Positions 956 through 1,482 of a stretch of 7,641 nt of DNA are shown here, in pieces. This stretch comes from Escherichia coli (lineage in GTDB: Bacteria > Pseudomonadota > Gammaproteobacteria > Enterobacterales > Enterobacteriaceae). The stretch's first letter is position 1. Every line of letters starts with the position of its first letter. The notes beneath the pieces are model-generated. The model saw only the letters and a program-made list of their open reading frames with translations, was not told the DNA's origin and made no database searches. The DNA lies in assembly GCF_003334255.1 (NCBI RefSeq), contig NZ_QOWU01000095.1; one strand, 5' to 3'. The translations under genes and the position numbers were made by a program.

Positions 956-1070
956 GCTCCTCTCCTTTGATGCGAATGCCAGCGGTAATTGAAGCCTGAT
1001 AGCTAATTTCACTCACAGTACCGCCTCCTGAAAATTACCCTGATAGAAAGCCAGTACACGCTGCATAGCT

Positions 1071-1442
1071 TCACTCTTCACTCTTCCGGCACTCGCGACA
1101 GATTATGTTTAGGCGACTGTCGTAGCGACGTATTTCTCCGTCAGGTAACGACCAGATAAGGTCCGGATCAACCACAACCGGTTTCTTCAGCTTTGCCCTC
1201 GATAATTTTTTGCGGGCATTTTGCCAGTCTTTACGAGCCTGTTCAGACGGGAATAACCCGTAGCCAGAATTGTATACATCGCCACTGGCAACCAGCTCTC
1301 TGGCCAGAACGCTCATCAGATATCTTGTTGCCCCAGTTTTAGCTTCCAGTTGTCGTAACGTCTCGCGCCCACTCTGGCGTACGAGTTCAAGAACCTGTCC
1401 TTTAATTTTTTCCCGCTCTTCTTGTGTAAAAACTTTTGCCAC
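1071..1442 (-). CDS. Hypothetical protein, 123 aa, GTG start; sits where a lambdoid P gene would, but is too short for a helicase loader
   Basis: ORF-track ORF. The start codon at 1442..1440 is GTG, 4 nt after AGGAGG (1452..1447). No internal ATG occurs before residue 43. Same strand and operon as the replication gene. Confidence 0.55.
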   Translation of the reverse strand: MAKVFTQEEREKIKGQVLELVRQSGRETLRQLEAKTGATRYLMSVLARELVASGDVYNSGYGLFPSEQARKDWQNARKKLSRAKLKKPVVVDPDLIWSLPDGEIRRYDSRLNIICRECRKSEE

Positions 1443-1482
1443 AAGCCCTCCTGAAAATTACCTCATGACCAGAAATTAACAC

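Follow-up and report, generated by a model that had tools for sequence, protein, structure and literature searches.

The window, i.e. the whole stretch of 7,641 nucleotides analysed here, comes from a Rac/Qin-like E. coli prophage and represents its early-right operon. It is 99.9% identical to a prophage found in many E. coli chromosomes. On the minus strand, the PGAP annotation of the best match gives the order Cro-like protein, YdaT, O-like replication protein, DUF977 protein, a hypothetical protein with a zinc motif, DUF7167, and onward. The O-like gene (1483-2559, minus strand) encodes a replication initiation/replisome-organiser protein and matched PHROG 3729 with E = 7e-257; the PGAP start is equivalent to window position 2553. 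It terminates with a TAA at 1485-1483, and a spacer of 40 nt separates it from the DUF977 gene. The latter is termed lygF here, a name taken from phage records. A literature search returned no functional study of 'LygF', the hits being mainly papers on vertebrate lysozyme g and Salmonella genome announcements. A consensus scan of the minus strand between 500 and 2700 found neither promoter- nor terminator-like sites. Without such an intervening site the genes may be carried on one transcript.

The other arm of the prophage contains ydfA/B/C, DicF and dicB. The small RNA DicF was located at 5174-5225 on the plus strand (Rfam RF00039, 76.7 bits), surrounded by dicB, ydfA/B/C and a DUF1482 gene. 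Thus, a division-inhibition module of the Qin/Kim type adjoins a Rac-like replication module. Within the O-like gene an overlapping repeat with a 12-bp period, ATCTGTATCTTT, is present at 2089-2118 and codes for a DKDTDKDTD stretch. An exact 17-mer, GCGTGACATTTCGTGAC, occurs at 2139-2155 and 2409-2425, 270 nt apart, and many further (T)CGTGAC units are found near these 17-mers. The repeats look like origin iterons embedded in an initiator gene as in lambda O. On the plus strand, a 212-aa ORF (3368-4006) resembles a complete repressor of the CI/LexA-type with an HTH-like N-terminus and a peptidase S24-like C-terminus. In the best match the RefSeq start of this ORF is about 300 nt further in (window-equivalent 3668), resulting in a protein of 112 aa; the annotated version is possibly too short.

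The truncated lygF allele

Relatives of the region were collected from 9 E. coli and 160 IMG/VR loci (169 in total). In all relatives examined LygF has about 140 aa and ends with FYQGNFQEAVL. In the window lygF is an ORF of only 123 aa with a GTG start at 1442 (1071-1442, minus strand; from the ORF list, DUF977 by PGAP in near-identical genomes). The difference is caused by a 7-bp tandem duplication at 1069-1082, CTTCACT in two copies on the plus strand, which shifts the reading frame so that a premature TGA is reached at 1073-1071. The best E. coli matches over positions 590-1520 are 99.2% identical and differ exactly by a gap of 7 nt at 1069-1075. Without the duplication the full tail reads CRKSEAMQRVLAFYQGNFQEAVL followed by the stop codon; the last 18 residues are missing from the window's allele. 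The reconstructed 140-aa LygF matched PHROG 142 ('Ren-like exclusion protein') with E = 9e-48 over residues 1-139, i.e. along the full length of the profile, as is expected for a member of the DUF977/Ren-like family.

Among the records of 5,426 complete E. coli genomes none spanned the duplication, and the 123-aa allele was present in 0 of 80 IMG/VR lygF loci. Because the duplication is absent from these collections, lygF in the source genome is probably a fresh pseudogene or a truncated allele. A duplication which truncates lygF and would uncouple the gene downstream is the most specific new fact about the window.

The 16-nucleotide repeat at both ends of lygF

The exact 16-mer GGTAATTTTCAGGAGG is present twice on the minus strand, at 1039-1024 (copy 1) and at 1462-1447 (copy 2); on the plus strand it reads CCTCCTGAAAATTACC. 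The initial annotation had reported the same 16 nt at 1024-1039 and 1447-1462, and the match is indeed exact. Its spacings were confirmed as well. Copy 2 is followed by GCTT (4 nt) and the GTG at 1442-1440 which starts the 123-aa ORF, copy 1 by CGGTACT (7 nt) and the GTG at 1016-1014; a further GTG at 1012-1010, in frame with ATG-955, is 11 nt away from copy 1. An exact direct 16-mer repeat of any sequence was obtained in 0.7% of 2000 first-order Markov random windows (analytic expectation 0.0068). When up to three mismatches were allowed, three matches were observed vs 0.08 expected from dinucleotide shuffles. Across many diverged relatives the consensus at both sites is the identical 16-mer. 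AGGAGG is contained in both copies, and the calculated duplexes with the 3' end of 16S rRNA (ACCUCCUUA) amounted to -10.8 kcal/mol for copy 2 and -10.3 kcal/mol for copy 1. Beyond the 16 nt no convincing homology of the flanks was detected, inspection by eye yielding only weak gapped matches (TTTCT...TCA). Because the flanks lack detectable homology past 16 nt, common descent of the two copies can only be inferred.

A structured RNA element was ruled out by folding: on the minus strand the z-scores were +0.6 for 940-1075 and +1.1 for 1425-1500, no better than shuffles. The Rfam scan yielded no family at the repeat; DicF was its only match. The third near-copy of the 16-mer, GTTAATTATCAGGAAG with three mismatches, is on the minus strand at 133-148. 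As a ribosome-binding site it was rejected; it specifies V-N-Y-Q-E, codons 4-8 of an Ea22-like pseudogene. This Ea22-like gene (1-157, minus strand; beginning with MSEVNYQEGHETAGQAK) is frameshifted in the window and in the best E. coli match, where it is a PGAP pseudogene; an intact 119-aa homologue exists in locus L002. The likeness of Ea22-like N-termini (xNYQE/A) to the LygF tail (GNFQEA) may be due to chance.

Copy 2, a U-rich tract followed by the AGGAGG, is located in the 40 nt which separate the O-like gene from lygF. Its distance of 4 nt to GTG-1442 is within the 4-9 nt expected of an SD in front of a conserved ORF. The copy is kept in all contexts in which lygF follows the O-like gene. 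Where lygF follows a DUF1627 gene the upstream sequence is TGATTGCCGGAGGCGCTTATG, which is shared with the window only from GGAGG on, with an ATG exactly in place of the GTG as the start codon. Because ATG and GTG alternate at this position and homology starts at GGAGG, GTG-1442 is taken as the start of lygF and AGGAGG as its SD. In addition, a divergent lygF paralogue (MAKAYTPEQREALK) was found in the loci L154 and L161 at approximately 240-680, preceded by GTGATTTTTCAGGAGGGCTTGTG. It has an extra in-frame ATG upstream, which overlaps the stop of the preceding gene as ATGA. Because of this overlap and the SD-type sequence, the paralogue has a coupled and an SD-driven candidate start.

The initial annotation took copy 1 as a motif upstream of a gene. 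In the normal allele it is not intergenic. There, copy 1 (1024-1039, minus strand) codes for G-N-F-Q-E(A) close to the C-terminus of the 140-aa LygF and at the same time supplies an SD for an overlapping start. The sequence GTGA at 1016-1013 contains the stop of intact lygF (TGA, 1015-1013) and the start codon used for coupling in relatives (GTG, 1016-1014). In the window copy 1 looks intergenic and untranslated because the private 7-bp duplication shifts the frame of lygF upstream; the lygF stop is at 1073-1071, and the overlap of stop and start is confined to the intact allele of the relatives. In these, the lygF tail FYQGNFQE, three variable codons and GTGA precede at least seven different downstream sequences. 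Among the partners are genes for a DUF4406 protein, a class I SAM methyltransferase and an 84-aa CxxC protein, genes of the MSRIDYQE-type, a short ORF beginning with MSQINN and the leader of the zinc-motif gene. PGAP starts the DUF4406 gene and the SAM methyltransferase gene of relatives at the GTG of the 4-nt overlap with lygF. When no co-directional gene follows, lygF ends instead with GDVRYLLK or GNVRYFRRY, without an SD. Thus, copy 1 is 7 nt in front of a GTG which opens real genes in relatives and only a 27-codon remnant in the window.

We compared 33 unique lygF-tail junctions, including two SD-less tails which match GTGA by chance. Mean consensus identity was 0.93 in the 16-mer, 0.66 in the 7-nt spacer, 1.00 in GTGA and 0.55 in the next 24 nt. 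At the level of sequence this profile is the signature of an SD, a spacer and a start codon. A near-identical junction, GGTGATTTATCAGGAGGTGGCTCAATGA (GTGATTTATCAGGAGGTGGCTCAATGA), is at the end of the DUF4406 gene, which is unrelated to lygF. It encodes the tail AVIYQEVAQ and overlaps the start of an Ea22-like gene, to which it would couple the DUF4406 gene. The argument that the DUF4406 tail is in a different frame, proving selection at the nucleotide level, was dropped; the frame is the same (AVIFQEA / AVIYQEVAQ). Selection on the G-N-F-Q-E peptide may confound a nucleotide-level argument for copy 1.

Homology breakpoints were mapped by BLAST of window positions 400-1800 against the 169 loci. 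The ends of homology clustered at 984 (33 breakpoints; the left edge of the zinc-motif homology block), 995-1012, 1024 (26), 1036 (16) and 1441-1465 (46 at exactly 1451). Comparable end-points were observed in a sample of 4,191 E. coli records. Since end-points cluster at both 16-mers, each copy marks a module boundary. Because the 169 loci are highly redundant, the counts go back to a limited number of ancestral events. The lygF tail, the DUF4406 tail, the spacer between the O-like gene and lygF, and the region upstream of the divergent lygF paralogue carry the motif or a close variant. The motif is a short shared sequence with unrelated flanks at which, in this redundant sample, breakpoints coincide, just as expected of a boundary sequence.

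A separate arrangement was seen in 16 IMG/VR loci of the L092 type. Here the region from lygF codon ~113 to the AATTTTCAGGAGG of copy 1 has been exchanged for unrelated DNA of about 1 kb (locus coordinates approximately 445-1417); the SD, GTGA, the 57-nt leader and the zinc-motif gene remain intact. The right joint of this replacement is inside the 16-mer. Locus H55 with only the 3' end of lygF was set aside as a 'lygF-less' candidate; it carries an IS3 insertion in lygF.

The 27-codon ORF and the start of the zinc-motif gene

The GTG at 1016 opens an ORF of 27 codons (MSEISYQASITAGIRIKGEEHGNKTRG; 933-1016, minus strand), which reaches 20 nt into the zinc-motif gene. It begins with MSEISYQA, similar to the N-terminal residues of Ea22-like proteins (MSNINYQA, MSRIDYQE). 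Its last 16 codons, AGIRIKGEEHGNKTRG and the stop, are a 3' tail shared by genes which elsewhere precede and overlap the zinc-motif gene, i.e. Ea22-like and 'RseB-domain' genes. Because an Ea22-like N-terminus is joined to a shared 3' tail, the ORF is regarded as a chimeric remnant of a module replacement.

The zinc-motif gene (599-955, minus strand; WP_000403785.1) codes for 118 aa and belongs to PHROG 1621 (function unknown); PGAP starts it at ATG-955. Six nt in front of this ATG is an AAGGAG (962-967, minus strand; duplex -8.7 kcal/mol), i.e. an SD of its own. The initial annotation had left the start undecided between ATG-955, GTG-1012 and coupling through the short upstream ORF. We compared the start regions of homologues as it had proposed. 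Of the candidate starts ATG-955 alone was conserved in every upstream context, and AAGGAG preceded it in all of them. Several unrelated contexts converge only from -29 of the ATG (GCTGGCATTCGCATCAAAGGAGAGGAGC-ATG); in one the similarity begins only at about -17. The extension upstream of ATG-955 in the same frame contains no start codon at all in several contexts, contrary to what a start at GTG-1012 demands. By this comparison the start of the zinc-motif gene is ATG-955. Initiation at GTG-1442, GTG-1016 or ATG-955 is deduced from sequence and comparison in each case.

Origin of the repeat and its relation to known junctions

The 16-mer is very probably a translation-initiation and gene-junction element which Rac/Qin-like lambdoid prophages reuse at several boundaries of their early-right operon. 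The element would consist of a U-rich tract and a near-consensus AGGAGG, 4-7 nt in front of a GTG. Copy 2 would be the ribosome-binding site of lygF after the replication gene. In the normal allele copy 1 would combine the last codons of lygF with the SD for the GTG overlapping the lygF stop. Because of this SD and the GTGA overlap, a ribosome which finishes intact lygF may re-initiate on the next gene by termination-reinitiation coupling. As a boundary sequence the element would be the site at which upstream and downstream genes are exchanged. Many unrelated modules carry the same short sequence at their edges, and this may be why homology between phages begins and ends there. In the lineage of this prophage, the gene once located after lygF would have been reduced to the 27-codon remnant, and the zinc-motif gene behind it would initiate at ATG-955 from its own AAGGAG. 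Because the duplication truncates lygF 54 nt before GTGA, copy 1 should be part of untranslated RNA in this genome, with the coupling broken.

The term of the initial annotation, 'duplicated translation-initiation cassettes', is partly appropriate. With an AGGAGG in both copies at a workable distance from a GTG, strong SDs and real downstream genes in relatives, 'translation-initiation cassette' is a fair label. 'Duplicated' does not apply in the sense of a local event; the sequence is a junction element common to many gene boundaries, at which mosaic breakpoints cluster. The repeat is real and non-random, yet it is ordinary phage architecture.

Direct repeats might also be the scar of an insertion of a lygF cassette, by target-site duplication or microhomology, and might then mediate its excision or duplication. 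The copies bracket lygF almost exactly (423 nt apart, 416 nt without the 7-bp duplication), the breakpoints coincide with both of them, and comparable repeats of about 50 bp accompany a gene insertion in mycobacteriophages (PMC3029335). We nevertheless consider such a scar unlikely. The gene has a copy-1-type tail with or without copy 2 upstream, as is evident from the DUF1627 context with its TGATTGCCGGAGGCGCTTATG, and therefore a target-site duplication does not fit. In addition, the motif ends the unrelated DUF4406 gene. Exact 35-mers for a precise lygF deletion or a tandem-lygF junction had 0 matches in IMG/VR, i.e. neither the lygF-less nor the tandem product was found there. When a chimeric 179-nt deletion query was compared with E. 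coli genomes, all 25 matches listed were in two pieces with lygF present, a format in which single-piece recombinants are not resolvable. A coincidence, in which selection for a U-rich tract and AGGAGG made two independent strong ribosome-binding sites identical over 16 nt, is very unlikely. It has in its favour that AGGAGG is the consensus SD, that A/U-rich stretches in front of an SD enhance translation, and that the flanks share no detectable homology past the 16 nt. Against this, the probability of any exact 16-mer repeat is about 0.007 and the SD explains only about 7 of the 16 positions. Moreover, many diverged lineages have the same consensus at both sites, and very similar junctions of 13-24 nt are present at other boundaries. 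Because of this recurrence across lineages and boundaries, spread of the element by recombination is favoured over independent origin.

The remaining alternatives concern the use of copy 1 in the window. That the zinc-motif gene starts at GTG-1012 (137 aa) with copy 1 as its SD, or that the 27-codon ORF is a leader which relays ribosomes to ATG-955, is highly improbable. The GTG-1012 frame is open, and the codon is ATG in L002. Yet it is 11 nt away from AGGAGG, a spacing at which an SD no longer works efficiently. A deletion of 1 nt in L008 places a TAG at the third codon of this frame and also shifts the frame of the 27-codon ORF. In other contexts the extension is unrelated and often startless, and PGAP calls ATG-955 always. 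As for the leader, the small ORF, the SD and GTGA are kept in most of the 19 leader variants (91 loci), including the L092 type. Its stop is 20 nt past ATG-955, a distance which re-initiation can cover. However, the start is lost in L035 (TAA stop), the stop is lost in L039 and L056, and the substitutions change amino acids in both overlapping frames. Thus coupling through the short ORF, which the initial annotation had considered, is unsupported. In the window the lygF stop is 54 nt before the GTGA, which excludes a relay from lygF. With hardly more than a slight chance, the element (U-rich tract, AGGAGG, N7, GTGA) might be an operator for a phage translational regulator or a small RNA, or the 27-codon ORF a functional relay. 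An operator, if true, would mean co-regulation of several genes of the ren/nin-like region, analogous to the T4 RegA sites; a relay would tune expression of the zinc-motif gene to translation of lygF.

With the 16-mer taken as a reused junction element, the consequences are mainly for annotation. For a widespread hypothetical prophage gene the start is fixed at ATG-955, and it is evident that lygF of this genome is frameshifted and that, read from the raw sequence only, its 3' end is mistaken for an intergenic ribosome-binding site. The locus is a concrete case of a boundary sequence with an SD, at which Rac/Qin-like prophages would swap small accessory genes. This may be of use for models of phage mosaicism and for the design of modular phage constructs; no concept is changed. 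To our knowledge, GGTAATTTTCAGGAGG-N7-GTGA in the lygF/DUF4406/Ea22-like region of Rac/Qin-like prophages has no earlier description.

Overlaps of the -4 type, ATGA or GTGA, are the main configuration for termination-reinitiation, and efficiency drops quickly with the distance between stop and start (Huber et al. 2019/2023, PMC10666635). The lygF junction has the same features. The upstream gene carries a strong SD in its 3' end, with 7 nt between this SD and a start which overlaps the stop, and the genes are co-directional in one operon, with neighbours in the window chained likewise (ATGA at 154-157). Unlike in such pairs, lygF of the window is frameshifted with its stop 54 nt before the GTG, and GTGA opens only the 27-codon remnant. 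A second parallel are gp67/gp68 of the mycobacteriophage Island3, where a repeated stretch encodes the C-termini of adjacent unrelated genes and was read as a footprint of gene-end recombination (PMC3029335). Here as there, the C-terminal residues of otherwise unrelated genes are derived from the same repeated nucleotides. In Island3, however, the repeat has about 50 bp compared to 16 bp, the phage group is another one, and no role as an SD or in coupling was invoked.

Mosaic joints of lambdoid phages carry short conserved boundary sequences (Susskind & Botstein 1978; Clark et al. 2001, HK620; as cited in PMC3029335). Compared with those boundary sequences, recombination through the lygF element is deduced, and the specific intramolecular recombinants were not found in IMG/VR. 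In other respects the element agrees with the type outlined there: it spans 13-28 nt at gene boundaries, has unrelated flanks and coincident breakpoints, and contains a ribosome-binding site together with the stop and the start.
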